Below, one piece after another: positions 12,479-54,190 of a DNA stretch of 64,000 bases. The notes beneath the pieces are model-generated. The model worked only from the letters and a program-made list of their open reading frames with translations. It did not search any database and was not told where the DNA came from. The position numbers were made by a program, and so were the translations under genes. The stretch's first letter is position 1; each line of letters begins with the position of its first letter. The DNA lies in assembly GCA_964634945.1 (NCBI GenBank), contig CAZWMG010000002.1, positions 38,661 to 102,660 of the forward strand, given 5' to 3'. The stretch is from an uncultured Planctomycetia bacterium. GTDB lineage: Bacteria; Omnitrophota; Gorgyraeia; JABMRG01.

Positions 12479-12483
12479 TAAAG

Positions 12484-15485: not shown

Positions 15486-15557
15486 AAAAGTATTTAGGTG
15501 GCTGAAAATATAAGCGACGGATAAGGTGTTCTTAAGTAAAGAATAGCGAGGCGTGAG

Positions 15558-16470: not shown

Positions 16471-16614
16471 AAATGGTATTGACAATAATAAACTATAGGC
16501 ATATAATATGTATGAAAATTTGATAAGTCCCGTGTTAGAAGGGGGAAACCCGGACTTTAAAAAAGTAAAACCTTCGCTCAAAAGGCGGAGGCTTTTTATT
16601 TGAAAGGACAATAA

Positions 16615-18070: not shown

Positions 18071-18428
18071 TCTAAAAAGTGGTTTCTGGCATTTTTTACT
18101 TGTTTTTTTGAAAATCTATGATACTATATTAAATAGGTAAAGTTCTTTATATAGTTAAAAAGCTAATAAAAATGTTTCGGTACTCGTTTTCGGTAGCGAT
18201 AATTACCGGTTTTATGCTGAAGCAGGAGGCGTGGAACCTCAAAAAAAACCATCTTTGGCAAATGGCGACATAGCACAAAGAAATTAGCGCGTAGAGCTTA
18301 ACTTATAACGCATATAAGCATAGAGTTCAACACAGGGAGATAGTGTACCCTAGTTGGGCTCTTTTCATTGTAGACCCATTAGGATGCATAATCTTAGTGG
18401 GTTTTTTATTTTAATAGGAGACATAGAA

Positions 18429-18746
18429 ATGAAAAGTAAACTCGGTATTGAAGAAGTGCAGATAGTTTTGATCAAGCCTACAAATGGTTTAATTGGTTTT
18501 GCTTCCTGTGTTACTAACGGTCAATTTTACATTGGCAATATAGCGATATATACATCCTTGAGTAAGCCTGGTGAGTACCGCTTGACCTATCCAACAAAAA
18601 AGCTGTCTTCTGGTAAGCAATTGCCATGCATACACCCAATAAATAAAGAAACAGAGGCTGCTATACAAGAAGCGATTATAGCAAAATACAAAAAATTGAT
18701 TGAGGAAGTGATAGAGAATGATGAAAAAGCTCAAGGTGGGGCCTAG
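18429..18746 (+). CDS. spoVG: SpoVG-family protein. The likely true start is the MKSKLG methionine inside track ORF 18354-18746.
   Basis: 'EVQIVLIKPTNGLIGFASCVTNGQFYIGNIAIY...CIHPINKETEAAIQEAI' matches the SpoVG fold pattern. An RBS-like 'aggagacatagaaATG' precedes it. Confidence 0.6.
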   Translation: MKSKLGIEEVQIVLIKPTNGLIGFASCVTNGQFYIGNIAIYTSLSKPGEYRLTYPTKKLSSGKQLPCIHPINKETEAAIQEAIIAKYKKLIEEVIENDEKAQGGA

Positions 18747-19257
18747 AAACTTTTTGTACTATTTATCTAATCAGTATAATTATTTTAAGGAATTATCAAG
18801 ATTAGATGAAGATGGCTCATTTTATAAAAGTGATAAAATTGCTGCAGAATACATAAATGTTTCAAGCAAAACTATTAAGAGATGGCGAGAGATCTTAAAG
18901 AAAGAAGGTTTTATATATTTTATTCCTGGCAGGCATGTAGGAGATGCTACAAGATACTGGATATTAAAAGAGAATGACAAAATGGATGGGAAGGGTGACA
19001 AATTGAACGGAGAGGGTGACAAATTGTCATATAGAGGTAGACAAAATGTCCCCCCATATAAAGAAATAATAAAAGAAAAAAATAAAGAAAAAAGAGAAGA
19101 GAACTATATTTCTCCCTTTTTTTTTAAAACAAAAAAAATCACTGAAAAAACAAAAACCCTTGAAGATGTTTCCGCAGAGACAATAAATGAGCTTCGAGAA
19201 GTATTAGGTGAAGAACAGCTAAACAGATATTTGCTAGATAAAGGATATGTGAAATAA
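18718..19257 (+). CDS. Hypothetical island protein with a possible N-terminal HTH and a K/E-rich C-terminus
   Basis: ORF track. 'SSKTIKRWREILKKEGFIY' is an HTH-like segment. Confidence 0.3.
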   Translation: MMKKLKVGPRNFLYYLSNQYNYFKELSRLDEDGSFYKSDKIAAEYINVSSKTIKRWREILKKEGFIYFIPGRHVGDATRYWILKENDKMDGKGDKLNGEGDKLSYRGRQNVPPYKEIIKEKNKEKREENYISPFFFKTKKITEKTKTLEDVSAETINELREVLGEEQLNRYLLDKGYVK

Positions 19258-19567
19258 AATGACCAGAACCCCTTTAAAGGCTATAAGAGCTAAGCGCCTT
19301 GAGTGCACAGGACGGCCTAAAGATATAAGATTGTGCCCAAGTCTAGAATGCCCCCTGCACTTATATAGGATGGGAAAGAACCCTAATAGGAAAGGCATCG
19401 GTAATTTAAAGCCTAGTTTTTGTGCAAAAAATGCATCTCAGCAAGATGTTTTATAGAGATCAGCCTATTGCAGGGCGTAACCGCCAGAAGAAAATAAGTT
19501 TTTTAAAAAACTAAGCTGAATTGTGGAAAATGACAAAATCAAACATATTCAAACAGGTTAGAGAAAA

Positions 19568-19945
19568 ATGGCTCAGGAGCTTAGTAGTAGACAGATAAAA
19601 GCCGCACTTAATTATTTAAGCGCACCCTCTGTAGATGAGGCATGTAAAAAATCTAATATAGCAAGATCAACCTTCTATAAGTGGATGCAGGATGAGAACT
19701 TTAGCTCATTTTTGGCCCAAAAGCGCGAAGAAATCACTAGAGAGGCCTTAAGCAGACTTAAAGATTCTTTAGTGGGCGCTGTTTCTAAGTTGGTAAGCCT
19801 GGTTAACTCTGATAATGAGCAGATAGCCAGGCTTAGCTCTAAGGACATCATCGATTATGTGTTAAAAACTATAGAACTAGAAAAAATTGAACAGAGAATG
19901 GTCAAGATAGAAGAGGCTTTGCAAACTAAGGGGTGTAGAGTATGA
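19568..19945 (+). CDS. Hypothetical HTH-containing protein (phage small-terminase-like N-terminus)
   Basis: 'ACKKSNIARSTFYKWMQD' is a helix-turn-helix signature. Confidence 0.3.
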   Translation: MAQELSSRQIKAALNYLSAPSVDEACKKSNIARSTFYKWMQDENFSSFLAQKREEITREALSRLKDSLVGAVSKLVSLVNSDNEQIARLSSKDIIDYVLKTIELEKIEQRMVKIEEALQTKGCRV

Positions 19946-20278
19946 GGATTCAGCAGAAACTAGATAAAATCGACTGCATGCTTGGTATCAATTCAATAAC
20001 AGGCAAAGAAGGTAAGATAAAAGGAACATTAGCAACCCTGGTAAAACAAGCCTGCGGAGCAATCCCAGCAGATGTTGAGATTGAATATGATGGGGAGCTT
20101 GGCAGGGTTATCAAAATGCATGCCGAAGGCAAGTGTGACGAAAGTGACATTCAAATCCTATAAAACTGGTGAATTGGGCACCAGGTGGGCAGTAGGGGCA
20201 TATAGGTATCATATAACATATTTATAATAAACAGGTTATGCTAAATCGAGTAAGAATATAAAGTTCTTAACCAGGGAG

Positions 20279-20833
20279 ATGCATATCATGAGAGACATTG
20301 AAGAAATGGAAGATGATGATCCGATGGGGCACGATCCGACAGAGCTGTATATGTATGGCATGAATCCCAAATCTGATAAGGGTAGACATTTTAGGAATAA
20401 CATCTTATGGTGGAGACCATTATGGAATTATTTAATTCATAACTGCAGTGATCTTTTAACAGAAAATCAGTTGAACAGCTCGCATGATTGGGACTTTAAG
20501 GATATTAGTGAAAAACAAGCTCTTTTAATAGCCCAAAGGCTCAATGAACATATAGCATCTGGAAAAGTGGAAACCTATAGCAATATTTTTGAATATATAA
20601 AAGGAACTTCAGGCCCTGTGCCATGTACATACTGCAATGGTGAAGGTGTTATTACCAAAGATTATACAAACTATAAGGAATCAGATTGCGATGTATGCCA
20701 TGGTGATCGCGTAATATCTATTATAAGTGTATTTTATTATTTTAGTGAAAATAATGTAAAAAGATTTGCAGATTTTGCTCAAAACAGTGGTGGCATTAAC
20801 ATTTATAATGAACTTCAGCCTATGTATAGGTAA
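20279..20833 (+). CDS. Hypothetical protein with a CxxC...CxxC zinc-ribbon
   Basis: 'CTYCNGEGVI...CDVCHGDRV'. Confidence 0.3.
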   Translation: MHIMRDIEEMEDDDPMGHDPTELYMYGMNPKSDKGRHFRNNILWWRPLWNYLIHNCSDLLTENQLNSSHDWDFKDISEKQALLIAQRLNEHIASGKVETYSNIFEYIKGTSGPVPCTYCNGEGVITKDYTNYKESDCDVCHGDRVISIISVFYYFSENNVKRFADFAQNSGGINIYNELQPMYR

Positions 20834-20930
20834 AAACCAATAGAGCTAAAAATGAAGAAACAGGTATTCTAAGATATGGTAGCGATCCTTAGTGTTTAAC
20901 ATAAGAACTATAAGTTCTAAGCCAGTATTT

Positions 20931-21128
20931 ATGGAAAAACTATTAACAGTAAAAGATGTAAGTATGGTATTCCAAATGAGTCCAAAAACCATTAGACACT
21001 GGGCTCAGATAGGATATATACCTCATTATAAATACAGAAAAGAAATAAGGTTTAATGGAGTAGAGCTTCAAAGATGGTCGTTAAGGAAAAAAATTAAAGG
21101 ACGTTCAAAATATACTCTAGAGGTATAA
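20931..21128 (+). CDS. Excisionase/AlpA-like HTH DNA-binding protein. Internal start of track ORF 20892-21128.
   Basis: 'LLTVKDVSMVFQMSPKTIRHWAQIGYIPHYK' matches the HTH_17/Xis pattern. Confidence 0.45.
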   Translation: MEKLLTVKDVSMVFQMSPKTIRHWAQIGYIPHYKYRKEIRFNGVELQRWSLRKKIKGRSKYTLEV

Positions 21129-21225
21129 AATGCTTGACTTATCTATATATTGTAGTAAAATATTCCTATATGGAATATTATTATGCCCACAAATTATCGT
21201 ACACGTATAAATATAAGGTATTGTT

Positions 21226-21582
21226 ATGTCTTTTTGGAATATTAAGCTCACTGATAAGTTTGAAATAAGATATGAGGCGTTTGAGGAAAAATACGAAGAG
21301 GAAATAATATCCGCTTGGGATAACTTAGATGCTTATTTAAAAGCGTTGCAAGGCGTTGATAATCCCCTAAAGGTGAATAGCGGATATATTCATATAGAAA
21401 CAAAAGGCATGATCGCGATTGATCAAACAAAGGCAGATAGAAAACTAAGAGAAATTAGGCTGTATATATATCCTGATGTAAAAACTAAAACATTACTGCT
21501 TTTAACAATAGGAGACAAGAGAACTCAAAAGAAAGACATCCAATTTGCAGTGAATTGTATCAAAAAATATAAAGGAAAATAA
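21226..21582 (+). CDS. Type II toxin, RelE/HigB-like (phage-related protein family)
   Basis: The C-terminal 'IRLYIYPDVKTKTLLLLTIGDKRTQKKDI' resembles the HigB/RelE core. It is immediately followed by an XRE-HTH gene 2 nt downstream. Confidence 0.5.
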   Translation: MSFWNIKLTDKFEIRYEAFEEKYEEEIISAWDNLDAYLKALQGVDNPLKVNSGYIHIETKGMIAIDQTKADRKLREIRLYIYPDVKTKTLLLLTIGDKRTQKKDIQFAVNCIKKYKGK

Positions 21583-21583
21583 A

Positions 21584-22162
21584 ATGCAGAAACAATATAA
21601 TAAAGTTTCAGATTTAGTAAAGAGTATATCAAAGAGTAGCAAAGTAAAAGAAAAAACTTTAAAAGAAATTGAGAACAGATCAATTTCTAAGTTTTTGTTT
21701 TTTTTAAGATGTGAACATAATCTAACTCAAAAAATACTCGCAGAAAAAATTGGTTGTACACAAAGCAGAGTTTCCAAAATAGAATCTTCATATGATGCGG
21801 ATTTATCAGTAAAAGATTTATTAGATTACGGCGACGCAATTAATTTAAACCTAGAATTAGGGTATAGACAGAAAAATGCTAAAATTACTGATTTAATTAA
21901 ATATCATGTAATTAGAGCAAAGGAATATCTTTCCATGCTTACGGATATGGTTAAAGGAGATAAAACTATTAAGGGTGGAGTTCTTAATTTTATGGAAGAA
22001 TGTTTATATAATTTTTTAGATGGACTTACAAAAAGTTTGCAAAAACTTAACTTAAGAAAAAATATTTCTGAGCCAAAAGATATTATACATATTTCCCCAC
22101 CTTTGCATGATAGGAAGATAGCAGAGTCCAATGAATCGGAAAAACTTGCAGGAAAAACTTAA
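21584..22162 (+). CDS. XRE-family HTH antitoxin (HigA-like)
   Basis: 'LTQKILAEKIGCTQSRVSKIESS' is a canonical XRE helix-turn-helix. Confidence 0.55.
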   Translation: MQKQYNKVSDLVKSISKSSKVKEKTLKEIENRSISKFLFFLRCEHNLTQKILAEKIGCTQSRVSKIESSYDADLSVKDLLDYGDAINLNLELGYRQKNAKITDLIKYHVIRAKEYLSMLTDMVKGDKTIKGGVLNFMEECLYNFLDGLTKSLQKLNLRKNISEPKDIIHISPPLHDRKIAESNESEKLAGKT

Positions 22163-22232
22163 TTTTTTATTCGAGCATTTCTTATTAATATAGAAATATA
22201 TGTTAATTAAGTAAAATAAAGGTTGAATTATA

Positions 22233-23135
22233 ATGTATTTTGAGCACAAGGAACTTTTAAAACCACCAATTGCAAGAGCAGCGTATAGCGACAGAACAGC
22301 TTGGTTGATGGCAGAGCTTTCTTACCTTGCTTATCTAAAATATGAAGTAGATAAAAAGCAAAAATTAGAATCATGTCTTAAGGAAGCGGAACTTGATCTT
22401 GTGAATATTTACAATCAAGGTGGGACTCAAGCATATTTAGCTAAAAATATCAATAGCAATATGGCGGTTTTAGCTTTTAGGGGGACGGAGATTGAAGGTC
22501 TTACATTAGAAACAATGCTCGATGTATGGACCGATTTATTTTTTAAATATCATAAAGACGATAGAGGCGTATTAACTCATAAGGGATTTCTCAACGCATT
22601 CGAAAATGTAAGAGAGCATATACAATCAGATCTTAGAACAATACCAGAATTTTCTTTGTATATTACGGGTCATTCTTTAGGTGGAGCCTTAGCTCTTATA
22701 GCGACTAAAATATTTAATTCAGATAACATAGCAGCTTGTTACACTTTTGGTAGTCCTAAAGTAGGGAATGAGGATTTTGATGACGAGATAAAACCCCCTA
22801 TTTATAGGGTAGTCAATGATGTTGATTTAGTGCCTTTTTTACCTTTTACGCCAATAATGCATGTTTTATCAATTTTTAACAAAAAATGTAAAAAGCTTAA
22901 AAAACTCCTTACATATATGTCACACTATAAACATACGGGTCACGTGCAATTTTTAGAAAAAACAAAGGGAAGCAAAGCAGAAATAAAGACACGAAAAAAC
23001 TATGGTGAAATAACTCGTTCTATTGATCTCTTAAGAAGAACTATAACTAAAAACAAAAAAGCGGGAGTAGATTGTCATTCAATGGACGAATATTGTAAAA
23101 AATTAGCTAAATACGCACAGCAAAGATTAAAATAA
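22233..23135 (+). CDS. Class 3 lipase (alpha/beta hydrolase)
   Basis: Nucleophile elbow 'ITGHSLGGALA'. Typical lipase_3 context 'FRGTE...'. Confidence 0.7.
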   Translation: MYFEHKELLKPPIARAAYSDRTAWLMAELSYLAYLKYEVDKKQKLESCLKEAELDLVNIYNQGGTQAYLAKNINSNMAVLAFRGTEIEGLTLETMLDVWTDLFFKYHKDDRGVLTHKGFLNAFENVREHIQSDLRTIPEFSLYITGHSLGGALALIATKIFNSDNIAACYTFGSPKVGNEDFDDEIKPPIYRVVNDVDLVPFLPFTPIMHVLSIFNKKCKKLKKLLTYMSHYKHTGHVQFLEKTKGSKAEIKTRKNYGEITRSIDLLRRTITKNKKAGVDCHSMDEYCKKLAKYAQQRLK

Positions 23136-23288
23136 ATCTTGCCCAAATCTTGCCCATTTTAGAGCTCTACAAAGGTTTTTAAGCGGACAAAAACGGACAT
23201 AAATTCTGCGAGTAACTTATAGCAATATCAACAACTTGTGTCATAATTCGTTGAAATGCAAGGAGTTACAAAAGCACCCTTAGAGGTT

Positions 23289-23305
23289 TCCCTGCCTCTC
23301 CGCCA
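23289..23305. repeat. attR-like 17-bp direct repeat of the tRNA-Ser 3' end
   Basis: 'tccctgcctctccgcca' is identical to 11649-11665. The flanking 'ggtt' is also shared. Confidence 0.55.
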
Positions 23306-23390
23306 GTTGTTTTAGCTATTTGGAAAATTTGCTTTTCTATTGCAAATTTTCCTTGACTTTTAAGCGAGGATAATATATACTTTTAATGCC

Positions 23391-24617
23391 ATGAGAAAAA
23401 TATATATACATAGGCAGATAGAAAGCGTCCTTAAGAAAGCCGCAAAACAGTTTTGCGCGGTTGCGGTAACTGGCCCTAGGCAGTCAGGTAAATCTACATT
23501 GCTCAAGGAGTTATTTTCAAAAACACATAATTATGTTACGTTTGATGACCCTATTGTGCGGGAACAGGCCATATCTGACCCGCGTTTATTTTTAGATAAC
23601 GCGGGCGAGAAAGTCATTATTGATGAGATTCAATATGCGCCTCAGATACTATCCTATGTTAAAATGGTGATAGATAATAATAGAGAAAGAAAAGGGCAGT
23701 TTATATTTACCGGTTCCCAGCAATTTGTGATGATTAAAAATTTGGGTGATTCTCTTGCAGGCAGAATCGCGCTTTTGGATCTTTTGCCGTTTAGCATTAA
23801 TGAAAGCCGACGTGTTCCAAGAAAAACCAAGATGCTTGATACTACTGAAAAGTGCCTTGTCGATTCTTGTCTTTTTGGCTCATTTCCAGAACTTGTTACA
23901 GCAAAAAGCATCAATTCTAATGCATGGTATGGCGCGTATTTAAGAACTTATTTGGAAAGGGATATCAGCACAACTTATAATATAGGCCGATTAAGAGAAT
24001 TTCAGCTTTTTGTTCAGTTGTTAGCATCACGATGTTCGCAGGAATTGAATCTTTCCGCACTTTCTAATGATATAGGCGCCAGCGTTAATACGATTAAGAG
24101 ATGGGTATCAATTCTTCAGGCAAGTAGAATCATATATTTGTTGCCGCCGTACTATCAGAATTTTGGAAAAAGAATTACAAAAACACCAAAAGTATATTTT
24201 TTGGATAATGCTTTAGCTTGTTATTTGTTAGGGATAAAGGATAAAGAAACTTTACTGAAAGGCCCTATGGCGGGCGCCTTATGCGAAAATTTTTATATAC
24301 AAGAAACCATCAAGCATTATTTTAATTTTGGACTAAAGCCGCAGCTCTATTATTTTCGCCTGAGGAATAGCTTAGAGGTAGACTTGATAATAGAGCATGC
24401 TGATAGAAAATTGTCACTTATCGAGATAAAACTGTCAAAAACTCCAAATAAAAAGATGACAGCCAATATAGGCGCATTCAAAAAGAATTTTTCAAAATTA
24501 GTGGTTAAAGATAGTAGGGTTCTTTGCTTAAATGATACTGATATGCTATTGGCAAAAGATGTTTATTGCCAGGGGTTAGATAGTTACCTCGAATATCTTA
24601 ATAGCCATGTTCAATAA
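23391..24617 (+). CDS. AAA-family ATPase (AAA_14 + DUF4143 architecture)
   Basis: Walker A 'GPRQSGKST'. Typical length and C-terminal DUF4143-like region. Confidence 0.65.
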   Translation: MRKIYIHRQIESVLKKAAKQFCAVAVTGPRQSGKSTLLKELFSKTHNYVTFDDPIVREQAISDPRLFLDNAGEKVIIDEIQYAPQILSYVKMVIDNNRERKGQFIFTGSQQFVMIKNLGDSLAGRIALLDLLPFSINESRRVPRKTKMLDTTEKCLVDSCLFGSFPELVTAKSINSNAWYGAYLRTYLERDISTTYNIGRLREFQLFVQLLASRCSQELNLSALSNDIGASVNTIKRWVSILQASRIIYLLPPYYQNFGKRITKTPKVYFLDNALACYLLGIKDKETLLKGPMAGALCENFYIQETIKHYFNFGLKPQLYYFRLRNSLEVDLIIEHADRKLSLIEIKLSKTPNKKMTANIGAFKKNFSKLVVKDSRVLCLNDTDMLLAKDVYCQGLDSYLEYLNSHVQ

Positions 24618-44474: not shown

Positions 44475-44528
44475 TTTCAAGACCGGTTCTTGAGCACAAC
44501 CGATCGTGCTCAAGAACCGGTCTTGAAA
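44475..44528. repeat. Perfect palindromic hairpin (22-23-bp stem, 8-nt loop) upstream of the giant gene. Copy 1 of 2.
   Basis: 'ttcaagaccggttcttgagcac' | aaccgatc | 'gtgctcaagaaccggtcttgaa'. Confidence 0.6.
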
Positions 44529-44554: not shown

Positions 44555-44583
44555 TTGACACATTAGCGATTTTGTTGTATTAT
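44555..44583 (+). promoter_or_regulatory. Consensus-like sigma70 promoter (TTGACA-17-TATTAT) for the giant gene. AGGAGG RBS at 44672-44679.
   Basis: 'ttgacacattagcgattttgttgtattat'. Confidence 0.5.
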
Positions 44584-44684
44584 TTAAAACAATTGTAAAT
44601 AATATTAATTACTTTTTAAAACAATATTAAACATCTTGATTATTGTTGATTTCCAAATCAATATAAAAAACAAGGAGGTCCTAA

Positions 44685-47600
44685 ATGGCCAGAAACATTA
44701 ACAGATTCCTATCATATCTAATTATCATAGCGTTCTTATCAACATCTACTAATCTATCCTATCTATCACAACAAGAATTCCAAAGCCAGACAGATACATT
44801 GAGATCCCAGGCAGCGGTCCTTGGATTAGATATCTCTGCAATTCAGGCAAGGCTTGAGTCGCCGGCTCCAGATGTAGCAAGGTCAAGCTCTGCTGGTGAT
44901 GACTCAGATGAAGTCAGCGATATTATGGTTCAGAGCTTCATGCAGAACAATACCGTTGTATTTATTAATAAGGCATTGGAGACAGTAGAGCTTACAGATC
45001 TACCGGCAAGCTACAAAGAGCTTTCAGACAAGTATAAGGGCATACTTTTACAGGAGATAGGAAAGAAAGGTATAGTGGCGTTATTCCAGAGGCTTGAGGA
45101 AGATGCTAATGACTTGTTTAAAGAAGGCAAGGAGAAAGAGGCAACAAATCTTTATAAGTCAGTAATATTCTTTGCTAAGGTTACGGACGCGCTTATAGTG
45201 CATGATAATGAGTTTGACTGGATAGGCAATATTAGCCTTTTAGGAGGAAAGATCGACAACTCTCTTATGCTTTCAAAGGGAAAATTAGAAGTTCCCCCGT
45301 TTTTTGGTATTACATCCATGTTCCAGAAGTATGTATGGTTATATAATGATCTGCTGCCAAAGATGAGAGATATCGCCTTTACAGTCGATCCACAGAATAA
45401 TACAGCGACATCCTCCGCACAGGCAAGATTTGAGCAATTGATAAAAGATACTCATGTGCCTGAAGATTTAAAGTTAATGCTTGAGATTGAGGCAAGAAAG
45501 ATAGCGGATCGCGAGGGTTACGCGTTAACAAAAGAGGAAGCAGACAAGCTTGAGACAGAAGCGATAGAGATTATACTCAGAAGCTCCCAAGGTTTAGAGG
45601 ACAGGCCGGGGATACCTTCTGCTGGTATCGGTTCAAGTGTGCCGACAATGGGCACTGATGGCATGCTGGATGTATTCAAGGATGTCGCCGCATCTGCGTA
45701 TCTTAGAAGGGCGTTAGAATATAGGGATAAGATAGCTATAAGCACATGGTTGCTTTCAAGGATGAACATAGATGAGCTTAAACATATAGTTAATAAGCTT
45801 AAAGGCTTGTCTGAGGTTACGTCTAAGGTCGAGGTTGGCGGGATATTTTATGATACCAGCACAATCGTAGAGGACATAGAGGCCAATCTTTCAGAGGATT
45901 TGCGTTCAAGGAAAGAGTTTGTTAATGTTTCAACATTGAGAGTACTTACATTACTGGAGTTATTGCAGCAGCAGAGCGCTAAGGACGATATTATTGATAA
46001 AGCATTAGTAGAGATAAGAGATGTCCGCATAGATTGCCTTGACGCGGCAAGGATAGGCGGCGGTATACAGACACAGACCATGCGTTCGAGTGAATATTCT
46101 ATTGTCGGCTTCGCGTTAAACAAAGCGACAGGTTGGACAGGTGACGCGAATGATATGGTTGTTATAGATTATGACATCTCCTATGGCAGGGGGGAGCTTA
46201 TTGTGCAAGGCTCTATAATCAGTGATCATTACAAGATATTGCTTAATCTAAAGACCGGTAAGGCCATTATATTATCGAAAGAATGTGGTTCAAAACTCGC
46301 TACATTAAAACGTGCCAAGGCAGGTGAAGAGATAGAGGTCTGGGCAGATTCTAAGCATGAGACAATAGAGACAGTTATTGCGGAAGAAGGAAAGGAATAT
46401 CTAGTAGTAACTCCTGTAGAACAGCGTCAAAGATTTGTTGTTTCAGATAAGAAAGCTATAGAGATAGCGCACAAGATATTAGAGGCTAACACTGTTCATA
46501 ACTCCGGAAGAACCCAGGTTGTGCCGGTAGATATGGAGGCTTGTTATTACCATGACACAAAAGGGAAGTTGCAATATTCCATAGTCCAGAAGAGAGACTC
46601 CGCTATAAAATCAGGTTTCGATTTTGAGGACCCTGATTTTGTTATTCATGCCGGTAAAGAGCCGATAGCCGGGTTAGCAGACGCTGCACAGGAACAGGGT
46701 CATATGAAGGCAAAAGGTTTTGAGACTCAGAACGCCGCAAGTGGTGTAACAGTGTGGGTTGAGGAGCCATCTGCTGACAGAGTTAAAAAGGCGGTAGAGA
46801 ATATATGGGAAGGCGCCAGAGAAGCCGCTTTAAATGAATTTTTACCGCAGGCGCATCCCGATCTCTATACACCAAATGATAAATCAGCGATAATAGAGAA
46901 GATATTAAGAGATAAAAAGATAGTGGATACCGGAATACAGGATGATTTTGATGTAGAAGGTTTTGATTTTGATAAGGCCCGTATCTTAGAAAGAATAATC
47001 AGCAAAGATTCTACACAAGAGGAGGCCATAAAAGAGATTGAAAGTGCTTTTTCAGGTAAATTGGAAAAGGAAGCTATCGTCTCTATCGCTGTGGGAGCAT
47101 TAAAACTCTTTAAAAATACAGCTAATTTAGAAGATAGAATGAGAATATTATCTTCTATAATCAGAGTAAATATATTTTCCTCGCCAAAAGCTGATTTAAA
47201 AAGAGCCTTTATTGAAGAGCACGCGGGAGTACTGGAAAGAGATGTCTTAAATAGGCAGTTTGACAAGATAAAGGCAATGATCAAAGACGGGATAACTGTG
47301 GTAATGGTGACGCCTGAAACAAATCCGAATTTTAATGATATTATGAAGTTTGTAGACGAAAATGGCGGCGCGACAATTACACGGCAAGGAGGTAGGTCTG
47401 CCCACGCTATTATTATATCTATACAATTCGGTTATTGCGTAGTAGGCGGAGCGGAATTCAATGATTCAGATCTTCTGGAAAGAATTAAAAATGGTGACCA
47501 GATACTTTTGACGGTAGATGGTAACAAGGGACAGGTATACGATTTAGAGATACCTATAACGAGTTTCTTTAGCGCGTTTCAACCAAAGCGTTGGGGTAAT

Positions 47601-50600
47601 TATGGGGGAGATATTGGGCTCATAACAAATGCTCCTAATGAAGTTGAAAAGGCATCCAAAAACCATCATTGGCAGGTACCTGTGGATCATGATATGTATC
47701 CTTATATGGAAGGAAAGAAAAGCGTAGGTTATTATTCTGTAAGCTTGGATAGGATAGAGGAGATACTAATAGAATTAGGCCTTGATTTTCGCGGTGCATA
47801 TGCGTATGACAGGATGAACGCGATAAGGGCCAAGGAACTTGATGAATCCACGTTATCAGAGCGCCAGAGAAGCGATGTTGGTAAGTTAAGAGGCAGGCGC
47901 GATCTAGTAACTAAGGTGGCTAAAAAGGTTAATGAGAGGGGCTTTACATCAGCGGTTGAATACCTGCGTCATGAACTGGCTAGCCACTTTAAGCAGATGC
48001 TTGCTACTACAAAACCGGGGCAGGTTGTGCAAGTCAGATTAAGAGATTTAAAGAAGAGAGAGATACTAAAGACTCAGGATACTGCCGAACTTTTTTATAA
48101 TGACGAAGAGGCCTCAATGATAGGTGACAGAGGAACAGGCCTTGAGGTTCATGATGAAAATATAGAGGCGATAGATCTACAGGTTCTTGCTCTGGAAGAT
48201 GCTAGAGCAGAGGCAGAAGAATTAGGTGGGTTAGGTGATTTAGGATTTATGTTTGTTTTTATAAGACGAGTATTAGATGATTCTGAATTAGGCATAGAAT
48301 CAGATCTTAAGAAGGGCCTTAACAGGCTGCTTAAGCTAAGAAGAGAGGGCAAGATTAAACGCATACCAGCGCATGTTGGGGTAATGTTTGAATTGGTAAT
48401 AAACGCTCTTTTGGCTGAGGAGCTCGCTGCGATATTAGCTGATTTTAGAGAGACTGTTAAAAAAGAATTCAATGAGGATATATCAACTTATTTTTCAAAT
48501 GGAACAAATGACCTTACACAGTCTGTCAAGGGAAGCAGGGATGAGACCAGGTATGTAAGTATGGATATAATGATGCCAAATGGTGACATTGTCAAAGGTA
48601 TAAGAGTATTTTATGAGGGCGATCCAGCTGTTGGCGATACGATAGCGCACGGCGCTTTTGTAGCCAAGAAATATGGCCATAAAAGAGGTAGCTGTGGCGA
48701 ATACTTTAATAATCTTTTAAATGCCGGCGATCCTGAATCGATTGACAGTGCAAGAGAGGGTTTTGGAAGGCTCGATTCCGGTGGAACGAGTATCAAGGTT
48801 TTTCCAAGGGCCGTAAAGCTTCTTGCGGATTCACAATTGGCAAAACAGCGCATACCTACTAATGTCGCGGTAAAGGCAGAGGTTGTTGCGGAAGGCAAAT
48901 CTTTGCATGAAAAAGGCGCTGTACACAGGAGGGCGGTCTTTATAAGATCAGAAGAAGATTTTATTACAGAGCGCGTTATTTATAGAGACGGTGGTAAGAA
49001 TAGCGAAGTAAGGTATGCGCCTAAGGCGGTAGAGGGGGATATTTTGATATTGTCAACGGATATTGCCCCTGATAATAAAAAATTACTGGAGGCTCTTGAT
49101 TCTCAGGCAAGCGGTGTAGTGCTTGCAGGCAAGAACGGGGTAAACATAAAAGTGTTACAAGCCTTGCTTGTAGAACGTAATGTTCCAACTATTGTGATAA
49201 AGAAAGAGATATTTACGAGATTGACTGATCTTAAGCAATATGTCTTTGATTTTGAGCGAGGCGCGATATATACAGAGAGCAAGATATCTTTTGATATAGA
49301 AACTGCGGAAAATAAAACAGCGTATGCGCATATAGATTATGACGCAAAACCTAAACAGACATCTGTTGAGACAGTAGATATGGATCATATCTATAATACG
49401 ATCGGTGTCCACCCGCTTGCCCTAACCCTATATGCGTTACATACGGGAGAGATAGAAAACTCTGTTATAGAGACAATAGATGGCGGACAGGTTGTGCGAA
49501 AATTGGAGAAGATACTTTCGCAACAGAGGATACCTCTGCCTAATAATAAATTTCCGGATATGTATAGGGACGTCAAGGAGCTCCTTGATTCGCACAATGT
49601 TGATAGTGTGCGGGCCTTAATAAATAAGGTTACTAAGCAAGCTGTAGAAAGGCACAGAAAAATTTTGCCGAAAGGTACTACGCTTGCCTTTGGTACGTCG
49701 CAACAGGATGCCTGGGCATTTGAGGAGCTAAAATGGGGCAAGCGTGAGACAGAGCTTGAGCTCAATGTATTCAATGTGCCTATAGATTTAAGGGGCCTTG
49801 CCAAGACCATATCCCCTGGATATGGCGATATATTCGAGATGTTTCTTGAGGTAGTAAAGGAAGAAGGGCTGGATATCCAGTTTAATTATGTGCAGGATTT
49901 AAATATCCTTGATGCAGCGATAGAGTTTCTTAATCAGAAAGGGTTAGTGCCTGGAGAGGATGGCTTTAATCTCGGTATGAGCGCGTCTACATCTCACAAC
50001 TTTATAGTAGCATATCGTTATTTCAGTAAAAGAGATATATCTTTTGTTAAGTTTGATGACGAGCTTCTACTAATGAACTTCGCGCTAGCTAATCTTGATC
50101 ATCATACAGATGTAAGGCGCTGGGATGGCAGCTTTGAGTCTTTGATCAATATTAATGAGAGAAGTTACCAAGAGGCATTAAAAAGAGCAAAGGCCATGCT
50201 AAGGACCGCTATGGTTAATCACGATGTAACAGAGGTAACAACTCCCAAAAGCTCCTCAAGCGGCAATAGCGTGCTTAATGAGGCTATGAAATTAGGTGTT
50301 CAGATAGAGCTTGATAAATTATATCTTGCAAGAAAGGCTGATGAATCAGAGAGTACAACTCGTGCGTTTAGTACGAGATTTGTAATAGCAGGAGATGAAT
50401 TCTTTGATAATGAGATCACTACTATGCTGGAGAATTTTAGAACCAAGATTCAAAAAGAGTTTGGTGAGGATGCGACAATTTCTATTTCAGCAGATCCAAA
50501 CGGACCACAAACAGACCTTTCTGTATCTGTATTATTAATACCTAAGTTCACTCCGGTTGCCCAATCAGCTATTCAGGCACAGTTCGATGGGTTGCTCCAG

Positions 50601-52517
50601 TCAATAAAAGATAGCGAGATAGCAGGTTCAAAAGAACAGCTTGGCATAAGGCTTACATTATCAGGAAATGATTTTTTATCTGATGAGTTTGAAGCCATGT
50701 TTGAAGCTTTCAATAGCCAGGTTAGAGATAATTTTGGCAAGAATGTATTCCTAAGTGTTTCAGGTATCGCAGATGGAAGAGAAGGCTTATTTGATTTAGG
50801 GGTCTTAGTAGAGAATGTTAGTACCACGCTGAAATCCAAAGGTTCTTTAAACGTAGTAGGCGACTTTACCCAGTCTGTCAGGGGCAGCAGAGATGAGGAT
50901 GGTTTCGCAACAGTATCTAAGAGCTCTTCAAGCGGTACCATGCTTGAGTCAGGATCAGACAAAAGATTGGCTGTTCAAAGAATGGTTATTCAAGCAAAGC
51001 TCGATTGGCTATATAACAAAAGGGAAGCCATTAGAACAGCACGCTTTAAAGAGCAGCTTAAAGTAAGGTTTACTTTACCATCAGATGTGTTTACCTCGAT
51101 TGGCGTGAAGGATATCCTAGAGGCTTTTCGCGGCAGGATTCAAAAAGATTTTGAAGAAGATGTGAAAATCACTTCTACAGGATATGCGGATGAAGGGGGT
51201 GGAACTATTGATGTGCTTGTATCAATACAGCCTAACAGCGAATCAACAACACCTAGAAGCCATTCAGGCGACACGAACTATGCCGGTATCAGCGAGCATC
51301 ATGCATTAAACGCAGAAGGCGTAAAATATTTTAAGGAACGGATTGAATCAATGGATCCAAGCAATGCAACAGAGGTAGCAGTTGCTCTTTTGTATCCAAT
51401 AAATGGTACGCTGCTTACTTCAGCTACTGCCGCAATGAATAAATTCAGAATTTCTGCCAGAAAAGAACAGGGCATAGAAATAGAGACTTCAATGCTAACT
51501 GATAAAACCGGTATTACCTTATCTATCGGTGGCAACGGAAGTAAAAAAGAGCAAGAATCTAGTGTTAATATATGGAAGACCTCTTCAGGTGGCACTATCC
51601 TTGTGTCAAATACAGAAAAGATATCTACCTTGGTTAGAAATCTTAAAGCAAGTGTTAATGCTCAAGAGAGATTTTCTATCGCCCTTGAGAAGCTTAATGA
51701 AATAGGTCCGGCTGCGGCATCTGAGGCAAAAGAGATCTTTGAAGGCATACAAAAAGAGTTGTTTCATAAGCTTGATGAAGATACTATTGATGTGCTAAGG
51801 ACCTCTGGTTTAACTCTATCCTCATCTGATAAAGAGGCATTGAGGGATATGGTAAGTATCCAGTATCAAGCAGAACAGTATATAAGCAATATCGAAACCA
51901 TAATATATGCGGATAAAGGCAGATTATCGGAGGATACTGCGCCTCGTGTAATGATATTACCAGCGACAACAGCTGTATCAAGCCAAGTTGTGCTTGCCGC
52001 AGAAGAGCTCCAAGCGATAAAGGATAATCTTGGGGTTATAACAGTAGTTAGCAATGACCCTATCGGAACAATTAATAGTATCAAGAAAGGCAAGATACTC
52101 TTTGATGTAAAAGGATCCAATGTCAAGGTCCCTGCTAATAATATTGCGGTAATGCTATCTGAAGATCAGAGAAGTATCGCAGGCGATGTGAGCAAGGCGC
52201 TAGGCACAAACAATACACTCGTAATGAGCAATATATCTACTTCTCAATATGTGCCATTTTCACAACTTGCGATGCTTGCAAAGGTTCAGCTTATACTCAA
52301 CAAAATAGGCGTAACATCAAGCGAAGCAGGGCCATATAGAAGCGCGTTTCTTGCTATATGGAAGGGTGTAACAGGTGCTCCATTTGTTGGTAGTATTGAA
52401 AAGTTTATGGCTAACCCTGTGGCTTACGTTATCAGCATATTGTCTGCACCGGTATCAACACTTAGCGATATAGAAATAAAGATATTACATGACAAGGCTG
52501 CCAGAATCTGGGCGTAA
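44685..52517 (+). CDS. Giant 2610-aa protein with an N-terminal hydrophobic leader, a ~460-aa N-terminal extension, a complete PEP-synthase-like phosphotransferase core (nucleotide-binding N-domain, phosphohistidine swivel domain, PEP-binding TIM-barrel) and a ~1200-aa C-terminal region of degenerate repeats
   Basis: Swivel 'TRQGGRSAHAIIISIQFGYCVVG'. Barrel 'MIGDRGTGLEV', 'ELVINALLAEEL' and 'YFSNGTNDLTQSVKGSRDE', colinear with E. coli PpsA. A degenerate second copy reads 'VGDFTQSVRGSRDE'. Four '..F(R/N)..(I/V)(Q/K/R)K(E/D/N)F.ED' repeat modules. Confidence 0.7.
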   Translation: MARNINRFLSYLIIIAFLSTSTNLSYLSQQEFQSQTDTLRSQAAVLGLDISAIQARLESPAPDVARSSSAGDDSDEVSDIMVQSFMQNNTVVFINKALETVELTDLPASYKELSDKYKGILLQEIGKKGIVALFQRLEEDANDLFKEGKEKEATNLYKSVIFFAKVTDALIVHDNEFDWIGNISLLGGKIDNSLMLSKGKLEVPPFFGITSMFQKYVWLYNDLLPKMRDIAFTVDPQNNTATSSAQARFEQLIKDTHVPEDLKLMLEIEARKIADREGYALTKEEADKLETEAIEIILRSSQGLEDRPGIPSAGIGSSVPTMGTDGMLDVFKDVAASAYLRRALEYRDKIAISTWLLSRMNIDELKHIVNKLKGLSEVTSKVEVGGIFYDTSTIVEDIEANLSEDLRSRKEFVNVSTLRVLTLLELLQQQSAKDDIIDKALVEIRDVRIDCLDAARIGGGIQTQTMRSSEYSIVGFALNKATGWTGDANDMVVIDYDISYGRGELIVQGSIISDHYKILLNLKTGKAIILSKECGSKLATLKRAKAGEEIEVWADSKHETIETVIAEEGKEYLVVTPVEQRQRFVVSDKKAIEIAHKILEANTVHNSGRTQVVPVDMEACYYHDTKGKLQYSIVQKRDSAIKSGFDFEDPDFVIHAGKEPIAGLADAAQEQGHMKAKGFETQNAASGVTVWVEEPSADRVKKAVENIWEGAREAALNEFLPQAHPDLYTPNDKSAIIEKILRDKKIVDTGIQDDFDVEGFDFDKARILERIISKDSTQEEAIKEIESAFSGKLEKEAIVSIAVGALKLFKNTANLEDRMRILSSIIRVNIFSSPKADLKRAFIEEHAGVLERDVLNRQFDKIKAMIKDGITVVMVTPETNPNFNDIMKFVDENGGATITRQGGRSAHAIIISIQFGYCVVGGAEFNDSDLLERIKNGDQILLTVDGNKGQVYDLEIPITSFFSAFQPKRWGNYGGDIGLITNAPNEVEKASKNHHWQVPVDHDMYPYMEGKKSVGYYSVSLDRIEEILIELGLDFRGAYAYDRMNAIRAKELDESTLSERQRSDVGKLRGRRDLVTKVAKKVNERGFTSAVEYLRHELASHFKQMLATTKPGQVVQVRLRDLKKREILKTQDTAELFYNDEEASMIGDRGTGLEVHDENIEAIDLQVLALEDARAEAEELGGLGDLGFMFVFIRRVLDDSELGIESDLKKGLNRLLKLRREGKIKRIPAHVGVMFELVINALLAEELAAILADFRETVKKEFNEDISTYFSNGTNDLTQSVKGSRDETRYVSMDIMMPNGDIVKGIRVFYEGDPAVGDTIAHGAFVAKKYGHKRGSCGEYFNNLLNAGDPESIDSAREGFGRLDSGGTSIKVFPRAVKLLADSQLAKQRIPTNVAVKAEVVAEGKSLHEKGAVHRRAVFIRSEEDFITERVIYRDGGKNSEVRYAPKAVEGDILILSTDIAPDNKKLLEALDSQASGVVLAGKNGVNIKVLQALLVERNVPTIVIKKEIFTRLTDLKQYVFDFERGAIYTESKISFDIETAENKTAYAHIDYDAKPKQTSVETVDMDHIYNTIGVHPLALTLYALHTGEIENSVIETIDGGQVVRKLEKILSQQRIPLPNNKFPDMYRDVKELLDSHNVDSVRALINKVTKQAVERHRKILPKGTTLAFGTSQQDAWAFEELKWGKRETELELNVFNVPIDLRGLAKTISPGYGDIFEMFLEVVKEEGLDIQFNYVQDLNILDAAIEFLNQKGLVPGEDGFNLGMSASTSHNFIVAYRYFSKRDISFVKFDDELLLMNFALANLDHHTDVRRWDGSFESLININERSYQEALKRAKAMLRTAMVNHDVTEVTTPKSSSSGNSVLNEAMKLGVQIELDKLYLARKADESESTTRAFSTRFVIAGDEFFDNEITTMLENFRTKIQKEFGEDATISISADPNGPQTDLSVSVLLIPKFTPVAQSAIQAQFDGLLQSIKDSEIAGSKEQLGIRLTLSGNDFLSDEFEAMFEAFNSQVRDNFGKNVFLSVSGIADGREGLFDLGVLVENVSTTLKSKGSLNVVGDFTQSVRGSRDEDGFATVSKSSSSGTMLESGSDKRLAVQRMVIQAKLDWLYNKREAIRTARFKEQLKVRFTLPSDVFTSIGVKDILEAFRGRIQKDFEEDVKITSTGYADEGGGTIDVLVSIQPNSESTTPRSHSGDTNYAGISEHHALNAEGVKYFKERIESMDPSNATEVAVALLYPINGTLLTSATAAMNKFRISARKEQGIEIETSMLTDKTGITLSIGGNGSKKEQESSVNIWKTSSGGTILVSNTEKISTLVRNLKASVNAQERFSIALEKLNEIGPAAASEAKEIFEGIQKELFHKLDEDTIDVLRTSGLTLSSSDKEALRDMVSIQYQAEQYISNIETIIYADKGRLSEDTAPRVMILPATTAVSSQVVLAAEELQAIKDNLGVITVVSNDPIGTINSIKKGKILFDVKGSNVKVPANNIAVMLSEDQRSIAGDVSKALGTNNTLVMSNISTSQYVPFSQLAMLAKVQLILNKIGVTSSEAGPYRSAFLAIWKGVTGAPFVGSIEKFMANPVAYVISILSAPVSTLSDIEIKILHDKAARIWA

Positions 52518-52601: not shown

Positions 52602-52651
52602 TCAAGACCGGTTCTTAAGCACGATTGATCGTGCTTAAGAACCGGTCTTGA
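52602..52651. repeat. Second copy of the palindromic hairpin, 84 nt downstream of the giant gene stop
   Basis: 'tcaagaccggttcttaagcacgat' | tg | 'atcgtgcttaagaaccggtcttga'. It differs from copy 1 by a compensatory G:C to A:T change in the stem. Confidence 0.6.
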
Positions 52652-52715: not shown

Positions 52716-52791
52716 GGCCCCATCGTCTAGTGGCCTAGGACGCAAGATTCTCATTCTTGTAACACGGGTTCGACTCCCGTTGGGGTCACCA
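52716..52791 (+). tRNA. tRNA-Glu (anticodon CTC) with encoded CCA
   Basis: Hand-folded: acceptor GGCCCCA/TGGGGTC, D-arm GTC-TAGTGGCCTAG-GAC, anticodon stem CAAGA/TCTTG, loop TTCTCAT, T-arm ACGGG-TTCGACT-CCCGT. Confidence 0.8.
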
Positions 52792-52954: not shown

Positions 52955-52970
52955 CCCGTTGGGGTCACCA
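52955..52970. repeat. 16-bp direct repeat of the tRNA-Glu 3' end ('cccgttggggtcacca'), 164 bp downstream of the tRNA. An att-like remnant.
   Basis: Identical to 52776-52791. Confidence 0.45.
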
Positions 52971-53107
52971 GAAATGAGTATTATTATGATTCTGTAATTG
53001 ACGAATTATTTATCATATGATATAATATATATACTAAAAAAATTAACGTGAGACCCCTGGCACCTGTCCGCCTTTGGCGGGAAAAGTTAGGGGTTTATTT
53101 TTTTGCC

Positions 53108-54190
53108 ATGAGAAGATTAATAATCTGTATAATATTTATTGCTTTTGTTGTTAATAGCGCAGGGCAGGGTTATGCCTTGAGGTCAGAGTCTACAGCTTTG
53201 TCTTTTCAGACAGATATATCAGATTCACTTAAGGGCCCGGATAAGCCTGGTTTAAATCAGGATAAGACATCATCATGTATTAGCAGTGAAGATGTCCCCT
53301 ATTCCAGATTAGGCGAATCCAATTGGTATAATGAGCTCAATGCTTATCTTGCGGGCATGACTGGTGTGCATCCAGGAGAACAAATCATTGAGATAGGCGC
53401 GGGCACAGGTGCATCTACAGCAGTTTTGTTGGATAAGATGGAGCATCGGGGAAAGATCATCGCGTTAGAGCCAAATCCAGAATATTTAGATATAGCAGTA
53501 AGAGTATTCAAGGATGAACCTGTGAAATTCATCTTGGCAAATGCGCAAGAAACAAATAGCATGATGAGGGGTAGGCTTCCGGCGGATAAGGCTTTCCTGT
53601 TTAATGCCATGCATCTTATTGATGGCCACGAAACTCTTCTTGACGATATTTCCGAGATTATTAAGCCAGATGGGACGCTAGCGTTTAACACAGCTTATTT
53701 CAAGGAGAATAACAGCGAATTCAAAAAGGTGCAAAGGCGTATTTTTGTTAAACTGTTGCGTAACGCCAAGGTAGTGGGGAAGAACATTATGACAAACAAT
53801 CGTACTAGATTTAAGGTTAGATCTATCGAACATTATGAAGAAGCTCTCAAGAAGGCTGGTTTTGAAATCGTTGGACTCAAACGCAGAGCTGTCAAGATAC
53901 CATTTCTAGATATAAAGGATTTCTACAGCGATAAGTCTGTTACAGATTATATCGCACCATCACTTACCCTAGAAGAGCGCGAGGAATTTATTATGAGATT
54001 GGTTATGGATGAAATCAATTTAGCGCGTGATAAGGGTAGAGATCATATCGAGGGGGAGTGGCTATATATTGTTGCGAAGAATTTAAATGGTAAAAATGAA
54101 CCTGCTCTATTTGCAGAATCTAGGATGTTATCACCTAAAGCTTTATTTGCAGAACAAAGGCGCATCAGCGCTATTTCACACTCCGCATAA
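53108..54190 (+). CDS. Class I SAM-dependent methyltransferase with an N-terminal signal/anchor. Internal start of track ORF 53048-54190.
   Basis: 'MRRLIICIIFIAFVVNSAGQGYA' signal. Motif I 'IIEIGAGTGAST'. Confidence 0.55.
   Translation: MRRLIICIIFIAFVVNSAGQGYALRSESTALSFQTDISDSLKGPDKPGLNQDKTSSCISSEDVPYSRLGESNWYNELNAYLAGMTGVHPGEQIIEIGAGTGASTAVLLDKMEHRGKIIALEPNPEYLDIAVRVFKDEPVKFILANAQETNSMMRGRLPADKAFLFNAMHLIDGHETLLDDISEIIKPDGTLAFNTAYFKENNSEFKKVQRRIFVKLLRNAKVVGKNIMTNNRTRFKVRSIEHYEEALKKAGFEIVGLKRRAVKIPFLDIKDFYSDKSVTDYIAPSLTLEEREEFIMRLVMDEINLARDKGRDHIEGEWLYIVAKNLNGKNEPALFAESRMLSPKALFAEQRRISAISHSA

Follow-up and report, generated by a model that had tools for sequence, protein, structure and literature searches.

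What does a gene encode whose product carries the signature of phosphoenolpyruvate (PEP) synthase, a textbook cytoplasmic enzyme of ~800 residues, and yet runs to 2610 residues? The question is raised by the open reading frame (ORF) at 44685..52517 on the forward (+) strand of a 64,000-nt stretch of contig CAZWMG010000002.1, hereafter the window; all coordinates are positions in this window, and residue (aa) numbers are those of the 2610-aa protein. A first-pass annotation had read the ORF as a complete PEP-synthase-type phosphotransferase core within one very long chain, a reading that Pfam and the recurrence of the ORF support. The ORF proves to be a genuine gene, carried by an Omnitrophota bacterium, for a diverged enzyme of the pyruvate,water dikinase (PEP synthase, PpsA) type that has kept its catalytic residues and carries lineage-specific additions; we consider a role at the pyruvate/PEP node probable.

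A single gene with a PEP synthase-type core

The ORF, 2610 codons plus a stop, is open throughout with no internal stop, as had been claimed. The first-pass annotation had also raised the possibility of several genes joined by assembly error and had proposed a search for homologues of comparable length. An identical protein (P0001) and relatives at 65-82% identity, matching over the whole length and with the same layout, were found in NCBI, JGI, ENA and Logan assemblies, and the same gene recurs in at least 8 independent assemblies. The ratio of nonsynonymous to synonymous substitution rates (dN/dS), computed for each region against two relatives, was 0.03-0.23 outside the repeats described below, indicating purifying selection along the ORF. 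Because the ORF recurs in independent assemblies and purifying selection extends over all domain borders, 44685-52517 is, as judged from sequence comparison, one genuine chromosomal gene and not an assembly artefact. A Shine-Dalgarno sequence, AAGGAGG, can be read directly 6 nt upstream of the ATG (44672..44678, +), and the promoter that the gene had been said to own is present as a consensus match only, a promoter-like sigma-70-type TTGACA-17-TATTAT (11/12; 44555..44583, +).

Pfam places all three domains of PpsA/PPDK-type enzymes in the protein, in the correct order and each above its gathering score. The ATP-grasp nucleotide-binding domain PPDK_N occupies aa 184-640 (45234..46604, +; Pfam alignment aa 184-639, E 3.7e-24, 86.1 bits against 27) and contains a large insert at aa ~350-455; its motifs GGK189, R299-SS..E305-D306, YGRGE504..VQG509 (G501-G509), D616-x-E618 and Q635-x-R637 are kept. 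A family-specific linker without Pfam match (aa 641-870; 46605..47294, +; dN/dS 0.10-0.17), conserved as far as P0009, a relative of 40% identity, leads to the phospho-histidine swivel domain PEP-utilizers at aa 871-960 (47295..47564, +; Pfam aa 872-949, 31.0 bits against 23.1; dN/dS 0.04-0.06). The phospho-carrier His907 lies within GGRSAHAIII (codon at nt 47403-47405), is invariant in a nine-sequence family alignment and has TSHAA/TCHAA as its aligned counterpart in relatives and in 2ols. The PEP/pyruvate-binding TIM barrel PEP-utilizers_C follows at aa 1096-1345 (47970..48719, +; Pfam aa 1096-1340, 43.1 bits against 22.8; dN/dS 0.03-0.04), with the site residues GDR1149G, FIR1194, MFE1236, GTN1275-D1276-LTQ and GSC1337GE kept. 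Over the core domains, dN/dS was 0.03-0.10. A search of the barrel alone against PDB sequences gave an alignment that covers only its first half, and motif conservation was therefore checked through near-canonical relatives (P0019, P0020 and P0025, with PPDK_N scores of 316-336 bits). In the nine-sequence alignment no catalytic motif varies, and each has its match in these relatives; the conservation is measured, and the catalytic roles are those that we take these residues to have from general knowledge of PPDK and PpsA.

The motifs picked out by the first-pass annotation, 'TRQGGRSAHAIIISIQFGYCVVG' in the swivel and 'MIGDRGTGLEV', 'YFSNGTNDLTQSVKGSRDE' and 'KRGSCGE' in the barrel, all fall within Pfam PEP-utilizers or PEP-utilizers_C, and the swivel and NDLTQ motifs, for which it had foreseen a possible failure of profile searches, are both placed in PEP-utilizing families. 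Its boundaries needed correction. The core had been started at residue ~465, with ~460 residues of no assignment before it; the PPDK_N alignment begins at residue 184 and only ~183 residues precede the core. The segment 'ARIGGG...' had been taken as the counterpart of GGK...VPxGF and instead matches the mid-domain motif 'AxSxGVQxMV' (~455), the true equivalents being LGGK189 and EVPPFFG (~202-208).

The best NCBIfam models are those of PEP synthase and not of PPDK (40 bits on the PPDK equivalog), and the best matches among PDB sequences are the PEP synthases 2ols and 9dae. By its domains and motifs the core is thus assigned to the pyruvate,water dikinase type, strongly diverged and with all catalytic residues kept, and we infer that the protein interconverts pyruvate and PEP. 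If the mechanism of the family applies, the ATP-grasp domain (aa 184-640) would load a phosphate from ATP onto His907 of the swivel, from which pyruvate bound in the TIM barrel (aa 1096-1345) would receive it, or the reaction would run in reverse.

A degenerate second module, a repeat array and a C-terminal region

Downstream of the core, the protein contains a second swivel-fold domain (aa ~1400-1530; 48882..49274, +) and a second, degenerate PEP-binding-type barrel (aa ~1560-1850; 49362..50234, +). At its phospho-carrier position this swivel, which resembles that of rifampin phosphotransferase, lacks histidine throughout the family. In the second barrel, residue losses were read from profile alignments: R1703 preserves the arginine of GxRG, Q and S stand in place of the FVR arginine and the MxE glutamate, the ND pair is ambiguous and the Cys-bearing end is missing. 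The whole of aa 1400-1850 is conserved as far as P0009, and a dN/dS of 0.05-0.17 indicates purifying selection.

The relationship between this module and the core was identified through structure and transitive profile matches, direct profile alignment having given nothing: hhalign of the second module, and likewise of the N-terminal and C-terminal regions, against the core returned probabilities <1% from a shallow family alignment (effective number of sequences ~1.8). Among PDB sequences, the best match of the second-module profile was a PEP synthase, colinear and not significant (E 0.68). A profile of the second module, termed A2, matches regions of P0016 and P0024 that Pfam itself names PEP-utilizers_C above threshold, and also the first, catalytic barrels of P0019, P0025, P0026 and P0037 (independent E-values, i-E, 1e-6 to 1e-8). 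We conclude that aa 1400-1850 arose by tandem duplication of swivel plus barrel and are catalytically dead, although purifying selection still acts on them. Because the histidine and at least two barrel residues have been lost, a structural or regulatory partnership is the most likely role of the duplicate.

At least four degenerate copies of the last barrel strands had been proposed for the C-terminal part. Three are clear, namely R1 (aa 1861-1954; 50265..50546, +), preceded by the linker P-K-S-S-S-S-G (aa 1854-1860), R2 (aa 1954-2047; 50544..50825, +) and R3 (aa 2091-2185; 50955..51239, +), each a copy of the barrel segment aa 1202-1283. The fourth, R4 (aa 2214-2282; 51324..51530, +), followed by K-T-S-S-G-G at aa 2298, is weak, with a z of 4.8 against the barrel segment only and an i-E of 9e-4 reached only after iteration. 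Self-BLAST of the protein did not find internal repeats; they were revealed by shuffle-calibrated local alignments and hidden Markov models (HMMs). In these alignments R1, R2 and R3 resemble one another at z 10-17 and the barrel segment aa 1215-1300 at z 6.5-7.3. With an HMM built from R1-R3 alone, all family members are matched at aa 1202-1283 (i-E 1e-7 to 1e-8), and one built from 17 family repeat units finds the same segment in the repeat-free P0009 (E 8e-11). The second 'VGDFTQSVRGSRDE' that the first-pass annotation had seen was located after R2, at aa 2058-2071 (50856..50897, +), as an isolated copy of the barrel segment's NDLTQSVKGSRDE end, with K-S-S-S-S-G following at aa 2079. AlphaFold2 (AF2; mean predicted local distance difference test, pLDDT, 56) predicted four helix-strand-helix-strand-strand units with disordered linkers between them, R4 showing the same pattern as the others, and placed the second 'VGDFTQSVRGSRDE' in a disordered stretch.

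The number of repeat units shifts between close relatives, from 0 in P0006 and P0007 through 1 in P0005, 2 in P0008 and ~3-4 in P0003, P0002 and the protein described here to ~5 in P0004. We set aside a model in which four repeats form one extra (beta-alpha)8 barrel, given this copy number of 0 to ~5. The dN/dS of the array is 0.55-0.67, a value possibly inflated through alignment of non-orthologous units. The motif K-S-S-S-(S/G)-G borders the units at aa 1855, 2079 and 2298, and a similar R-S-S-S-A-G occurs at aa 66. The chain ends with a family-specific C-terminal region (aa 2300-2610; 51582..52514, +), predicted to comprise a helical bundle, a small alpha/beta domain and further helices, which is conserved only in the close family and one further protein (dN/dS 0.19-0.23). 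A homologue search with this region returned a single new protein, and Pfam searches of each region without assignment separately (E up to 10) gave noise only.

The leader and the genomic setting

The hydrophobic N-terminal leader noted earlier is present in the translated ORF (aa 1-30; 44685..44774, +). It consists of a basic n-region, MARNINR, a ~12-residue hydrophobic core, FLSYLIIIAFLS, and a polar stretch, TSTNLSYLSQQ; its shape is that of a signal peptide, it is too short for a standard membrane helix, and no further hydrophobic segment was found in the 2610 residues. A type IV prepilin or lipoprotein leader was rejected, as neither a G-F-T-L-I-E-type motif nor a lipobox Cys is present. 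In the wider family, 20 of the 23 full-length members begin with a similar leader. In 14 of these 20 it is followed, after 10-25 residues, by D-x-L-R-x (here D-T-L-R-S, aa 37-41; 44793..44807, +), for which the background expectation is 0.054 per 50 aa. The variants D-x-L-R-(P/R/K/S) are found in P0019, P0020, P0025-P0028, P0032 and P0037 as well as in the close family; in reading this count, the eight close relatives are not independent, and eight distant members carry the motif too. The leader with D-x-L-R may be an Omnitrophota-specific sorting or processing signal. The remainder of the N-terminal region (aa 31-183; 44775..45233, +; dN/dS 0.16-0.21) is of low complexity, including R-S-S-S-A-G at aa 66-71, and then contains a segment without Pfam match.

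Leaders of this kind were seen on two other enzymes of the window. A RelA/SpoT-like protein of 778 aa (HD_4 and RelA_SpoT domains; 5461-7797, +) begins with a basic/hydrophobic leader, KKYTYKYICVSLIIFLISVI, followed by 'FALRP' and then K-S-S-A-S-G, a pattern as in the 2610-aa protein and odd on an enzyme that needs ATP/GTP. The S-adenosylmethionine (SAM)-dependent methyltransferase encoded directly downstream (53048-54190, +; its homologue at locus L001 has 547 aa) carries a hydrophobic leader, RRLIICIIFIAFVV, and then 'YALRS'. Since two enzymes with cytoplasmic substrates bear similar leaders within one window, the leader may be a lineage-specific tether or sorting signal and not an export signal.

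The first-pass annotation had noted two palindromes bracketing the gene and a tRNA with an att-like repeat behind it, and had suggested that the gene may have been acquired. The elements exist. A perfect 48-bp palindrome lies upstream (44478..44525; RNA fold -41.8 kcal/mol, z -10.5) and a 48-bp hairpin downstream (52603..52650, +; -41.8 kcal/mol, z -12.3); they are near-identical, with G/A differences compensated on both arms, and are the only two copies in the window. The downstream hairpin has a diverged, still-pairing counterpart at the same place in loci L007 and L008 and is most simply a terminator. For the upstream palindrome no counterpart was found: L001 has no inverted repeat flanking the gene, and the exact arm sequence is absent from the relatives' loci (8 loci). 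This copy appears specific to the present genome. Rfam returned only tRNA and sub-threshold microRNA-like matches, the latter on the palindrome. The tRNA is tRNA-Glu (CUC; 52716..52791, +), at the same position 3' of the gene in relatives, and its last 15 nt (52777-52791) recur at 52956..52970 (+) as a small insertion scar.

The suggested acquisition is not supported by these elements. The 15-nt repeat pair encloses only ~165 nt, all of it beyond the 3' end of the gene. Because the sequence right after tRNA-Glu differs in every relative, the repeat marks an integration hot spot downstream and not an island containing the gene; in L007 (13960-19737) an island with a weak HNH match, a PLD-family protein and HsdM is found there. 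The G+C content of the gene (0.40-0.42) matches that of its flanks. The downstream order of gene, hairpin, tRNA-Glu, methyltransferase, ROK and OEP is conserved in relatives at 67-79% protein identity: in L001 (67%) and L008 (79%), tRNA-Glu (CUC) follows the gene, and then come the methyltransferase (in L008 an unannotated gene instead), ROK kinase and OEP. In the window, the neighbours are unrelated housekeeping genes encoding a DEAD-box helicase, a radical-SAM protein and an alpha/beta hydrolase, with the methyltransferase, a ROK kinase and an OEP/HlyD efflux pair further downstream. Elsewhere in the window, a tRNA-Ser (GGA; 11577-11665) is followed by a tyrosine integrase (12484-13515) and by low G+C (0.31-0.36) over 14-24 kb, and 11577-24000 is probably an integrated element. 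A 608-aa ORF at 8837-10663 (+), with chorismate-binding and class IV aminotransferase domains, is a PabB-PabC-type fusion.

Family, competing explanations and known systems

Profile A2 defines a family of long PpsA proteins with a second barrel, that is, with a PpsA-like core, a second swivel-like domain and a second PEP-utilizers_C-like barrel, all of which the present protein has. The family is rare, with 31 representative clusters among 1.84 billion proteins, many of them of 1400-3029 aa and with 2-3 PEP-utilizers_C stretches. All organism names attached to its members belong to Omnitrophota: the closest named homologues are from Candidatus Orphnella occulta, more distant ones from Omnitrophica and Candidatus Aceula meridiana. 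Two genome records that carry the family are titled as Planctomycetia or Planctomycetales metagenome-assembled genomes (MAGs). Going by these homologues, the host of the gene is an Omnitrophota bacterium close to Candidatus Orphnella occulta.

In several relatives the core is joined to further enzymes. P0009 (locus L003, contig JAQUAH010000089.1, an Omnitrophota MAG) is a contig-wide partial ORF of 2411 aa with the order TIM, a weak FBPase_glpX match, core, duplicate and the start of PGK, and P0025 has a TIM domain C-terminal to its PpsA-like core; in both, steps of lower glycolysis or gluconeogenesis are united in a single chain. At L005:3-14921 (contig CAZPQS010000009.1, labelled as a Planctomycetales MAG), one frame is open over all 14,922 bases and cut at both ends of the locus, encoding at least 4973 aa, and the other two forward frames contain 412 and 452 stops. 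This ORF contains the core, the duplicate, further PPDK_N stretches, Fer4, TPP_enzyme_C, POR, POR_N and PFOR_II, a complete pyruvate:ferredoxin oxidoreductase (PFOR) set, and an ARMT1-like phosphatase. A stand-alone ARMT1-like damage-control phosphatase, of the family fused in L005, is also encoded in the window (2993-3889, +; E 2e-67). At L016 (2145-5757), the family protein ends directly after the duplicate and is followed by an HD_4-domain gene and then by an ORF fusing PTS-HPr with a PPDK_N ATP-grasp domain. Because relatives fuse core and duplicate with TIM, PGK, an FBPase-like stretch, PFOR and ARMT1, the family appears to have its place at the pyruvate/PEP node, in physical linkage with adjacent reactions of central carbon metabolism.

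In the account that we regard as probable, the PpsA-type enzyme would carry four lineage-specific additions: the conserved signal-peptide-like leader; the second swivel and barrel (aa 1400-1850), duplicated in tandem; an array of rapidly evolving ~90-residue copies of barrel segment alpha5-beta6-alpha6-beta7, which vary in number and have K-S-S-S-G-G linkers between them; and the family-specific C-terminal region. PEP-utilizing enzymes normally pair with a second subunit via their barrels, and the duplicate may be an in-chain stand-in for that subunit. Several points weigh against this account. Scores on the PEP-synthase equivalogs are far under the cut-offs (NF005057/TIGR01418, 150.3 against 598 and 131.5 against 739.75), and we have therefore filed the protein as PpsA-like and not as an orthologue of canonical PpsA, from which it could differ in substrate or direction. 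The leader is shaped like a Sec signal peptide and is the sole hydrophobic segment of the protein; if it drives export, an ATP-dependent dikinase would be placed where ATP is absent. The two AF2 models reach only modest confidence (mean pLDDT 63 and 56), and the role of the duplicate as an in-chain pseudo-dimer is one that we infer.

Export is the core of a competing explanation that we consider unlikely, in which the protein is a small cousin of the giant Omnitrophota proteins called "Archaeovorins", is exported or surface-exposed by way of Sec, and has enzyme-like domains that work beyond the cytoplasm or at or inside a host or prey cell, or that provide binding or scaffolding. The leader in 20 of the 23 family proteins fits this, as does a type II secretion/type IV pilus cluster that precedes the gene in the genome of P0004. 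According to the accessible parts of two preprints, PPDK_N is common in giant Omnitrophota proteins whose sugar-metabolism domains are predicted to be extracellular (bioRxiv 10.1101/2023.11.21.568195), and a signal peptide or membrane helix is reported for 94% of the long proteins of this phylum (bioRxiv 10.64898/2026.06.07.730766). Strong purifying selection on the ATP-grasp, histidine and PEP-site residues is, however, hard to square with a place free of ATP and PEP, the like leaders on the RelA/SpoT-like enzyme and the SAM methyltransferase belong to enzymes that need cytoplasmic substrates, and Pfam found no adhesin, glycosidase or peptidase domains. Rather less likely still, and more far-reaching, is the idea that Omnitrophota make leader-tagged "metabolon polypeptides" at the pyruvate/PEP node, with the active PpsA-type core and its dead duplicate as the hub. 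PFOR, the ARMT1 phosphatase, TIM, PGK and the FBPase-like stretch would be fused to this hub in relatives, and in the present protein neighbouring enzymes would dock on the repeat array and the C-terminal domain. The leader with D-x-L-R would direct such enzymes, and with them the RelA/SpoT-like protein and the methyltransferase, to one shared location, a membrane or a compartment, and the K-S-S-S-G-G borders could be processing sites.

Two further readings seem to us improbable. The swivel histidine might pass its phosphate to an HPr-like protein or a small molecule, as in Enzyme I and rifampin phosphotransferase, making the protein a phosphotransfer or regulatory device. The low PpsA equivalog scores, the HD-domain protein and PTS-HPr/PPDK_N fusion that follow the L016 homologue, and the likeness of the duplicate swivel to that of rifampin phosphotransferase would all suit such a role, whereas the PEP/pyruvate-site residues R1149, R1194, E1236, N1275/D1276 and C1337 are invariant, the fusion partners PFOR, PGK and TIM adjoin pyruvate/PEP and fit metabolism, and no HPr-like gene adjoins the gene within the window. 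Held at a similarly low level, and compatible with the account that we favour, is cleavage at the K-S-S-S-G-G sites to release a PpsA-like enzyme and separate small modules. Such motifs stand at every border of a repeat module and after the leader region (aa 66, 1855, 2079 and 2298), in close relatives too, and coincide with predicted disorder; K-S-S-A-S-G, a similar motif, follows the leader of the window's RelA/SpoT-like protein, and cleavage is proposed for giant Omnitrophota proteins in the accessible part of bioRxiv 10.1101/2023.11.21.568195. Ser/Gly-rich stretches are nevertheless ordinary flexible linkers, the motif is missing from distant members including the fusions P0009, L005 and P0025, and no protease gene adjoins the gene in the window. 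An artefact of mis-joined genes, or a transferred gene between the palindromes and the att-like repeat, is highly improbable and is refuted as far as sequence data allow. The near-identical palindromes flank exactly this gene in the window, tRNA-Glu with its 15-nt repeat lies downstream, and upstream synteny varies among relatives; all of this is outweighed by the same continuous ORF in many assemblies of different sources, purifying selection across all domain borders, G+C equal to that of the flanks, the conserved downstream order and a repeat pair that is wholly downstream.

Under the PpsA-type account, PEP-synthase chemistry has apparently been kept in a three-fold larger, leader-tagged protein that holds a dead internal copy of its own domains, and a TIM-barrel fragment has been copied into a tandem array whose copy number shifts between close relatives. 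The single-ORF fusions with PFOR, TIM and PGK offer testable "Rosetta-stone" evidence on the organisation of central carbon metabolism in ultra-small, possibly host-dependent bacteria. A protein of 2.6 kaa is also a tractable entry point to otherwise unmanageable Omnitrophota giant proteins, and the leader shared by enzymes expected to be cytoplasmic poses a specific question on protein sorting in this phylum.

Compared with PpsA (TIGR01418, NF005057; 2OLS from Neisseria, 9DAE from Staphylothermus marinus), the protein has the same three domains, order and catalytic motifs, and differs in a ~100-residue insert in the ATP-grasp domain, a 230-residue linker, an N-terminal leader and ~1265 extra C-terminal residues, which bring it to ~3x the normal length. 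PPDK, on whose equivalog it scores only 40 bits, and PTS Enzyme I, which unlike it is without an ATP-grasp domain, both lack the tandem second swivel and barrel. Comparable swivels are the non-catalytic one that Geobacillus stearothermophilus pyruvate kinase carries as an additional C-terminal domain (2E28) and that of rifampin phosphotransferase (5HV1); the His-less swivel described here differs in being paired with a degenerate barrel, together duplicating the enzyme's own C-terminal two-thirds.

The architecture had been called not a described one, and this stands for the exact layout, which we did not find described, and fails for its ingredients, since PPDK-type, TIM and FBPase domains in long Omnitrophota proteins have been reported. 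In the accessible parts of West-Roberts et al. (bioRxiv 10.1101/2023.11.21.568195), PPDK_N is among the twenty commonest domains of the giant "Archaeovorins", TIM, FBPase and aldolase domains occur in them, and an extracellular location and proteolytic processing are discussed; in those of bioRxiv 10.64898/2026.06.07.730766, "multi-enzyme metabolic clusters" form one class of long Omnitrophota proteins. The giants share with the present family the phylum, long chains with PPDK_N and, less often, TIM or FBPase, and multi-enzyme ORFs (here among the relatives). A signal peptide or membrane association is usual in the giants, and the present protein has its conserved leader with basic and hydrophobic regions. 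At 2610 aa the protein falls short of the giant-protein thresholds of 10,000 or 30,000 aa, the latter for the largest class, and unlike the giants it has no glycosyltransferase, peptidase, TPR or SecA-like domains (Pfam) and no internal membrane helices (hydrophobicity). Pfam found three PEP-utilizer families only, and none of the giant-type content searched for (glycosyltransferase, glycoside hydrolase, peptidase, methyltransferase, NUDIX). In the accessible sources, a duplicated dead module and barrel-fragment repeats are not described for "Archaeovorins" or multi-enzyme metabolic clusters, and the available part of the paper naming Orphnella does not mention this protein. Within the same limits we found no description of a three-domain core with a dead in-chain duplicate, a barrel-fragment array of varying copy number, the D-x-L-R leader, or this family's fusions with PFOR, PGK and TIM. 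Literature searches on PEP synthase with Omnitrophota returned nothing, and those on PpsA, TIM and PGK fusions nothing bacterial and relevant.

A long PpsA-like protein in Omnitrophota is therefore no surprise in kind. Fused glycolytic enzymes are known from the PGK-TIM fusion of Thermotoga maritima. TPI-GAPDH fusions are reported from stramenopiles (PMC3527533). P0009, P0025 and L005 likewise combine adjacent steps of lower glycolysis or gluconeogenesis within a single polypeptide; the Omnitrophota fusions differ in involving PpsA and PFOR and in being far longer, and the protein described here differs from all of these in carrying, beside its PpsA-type core, no second recognisable enzyme.

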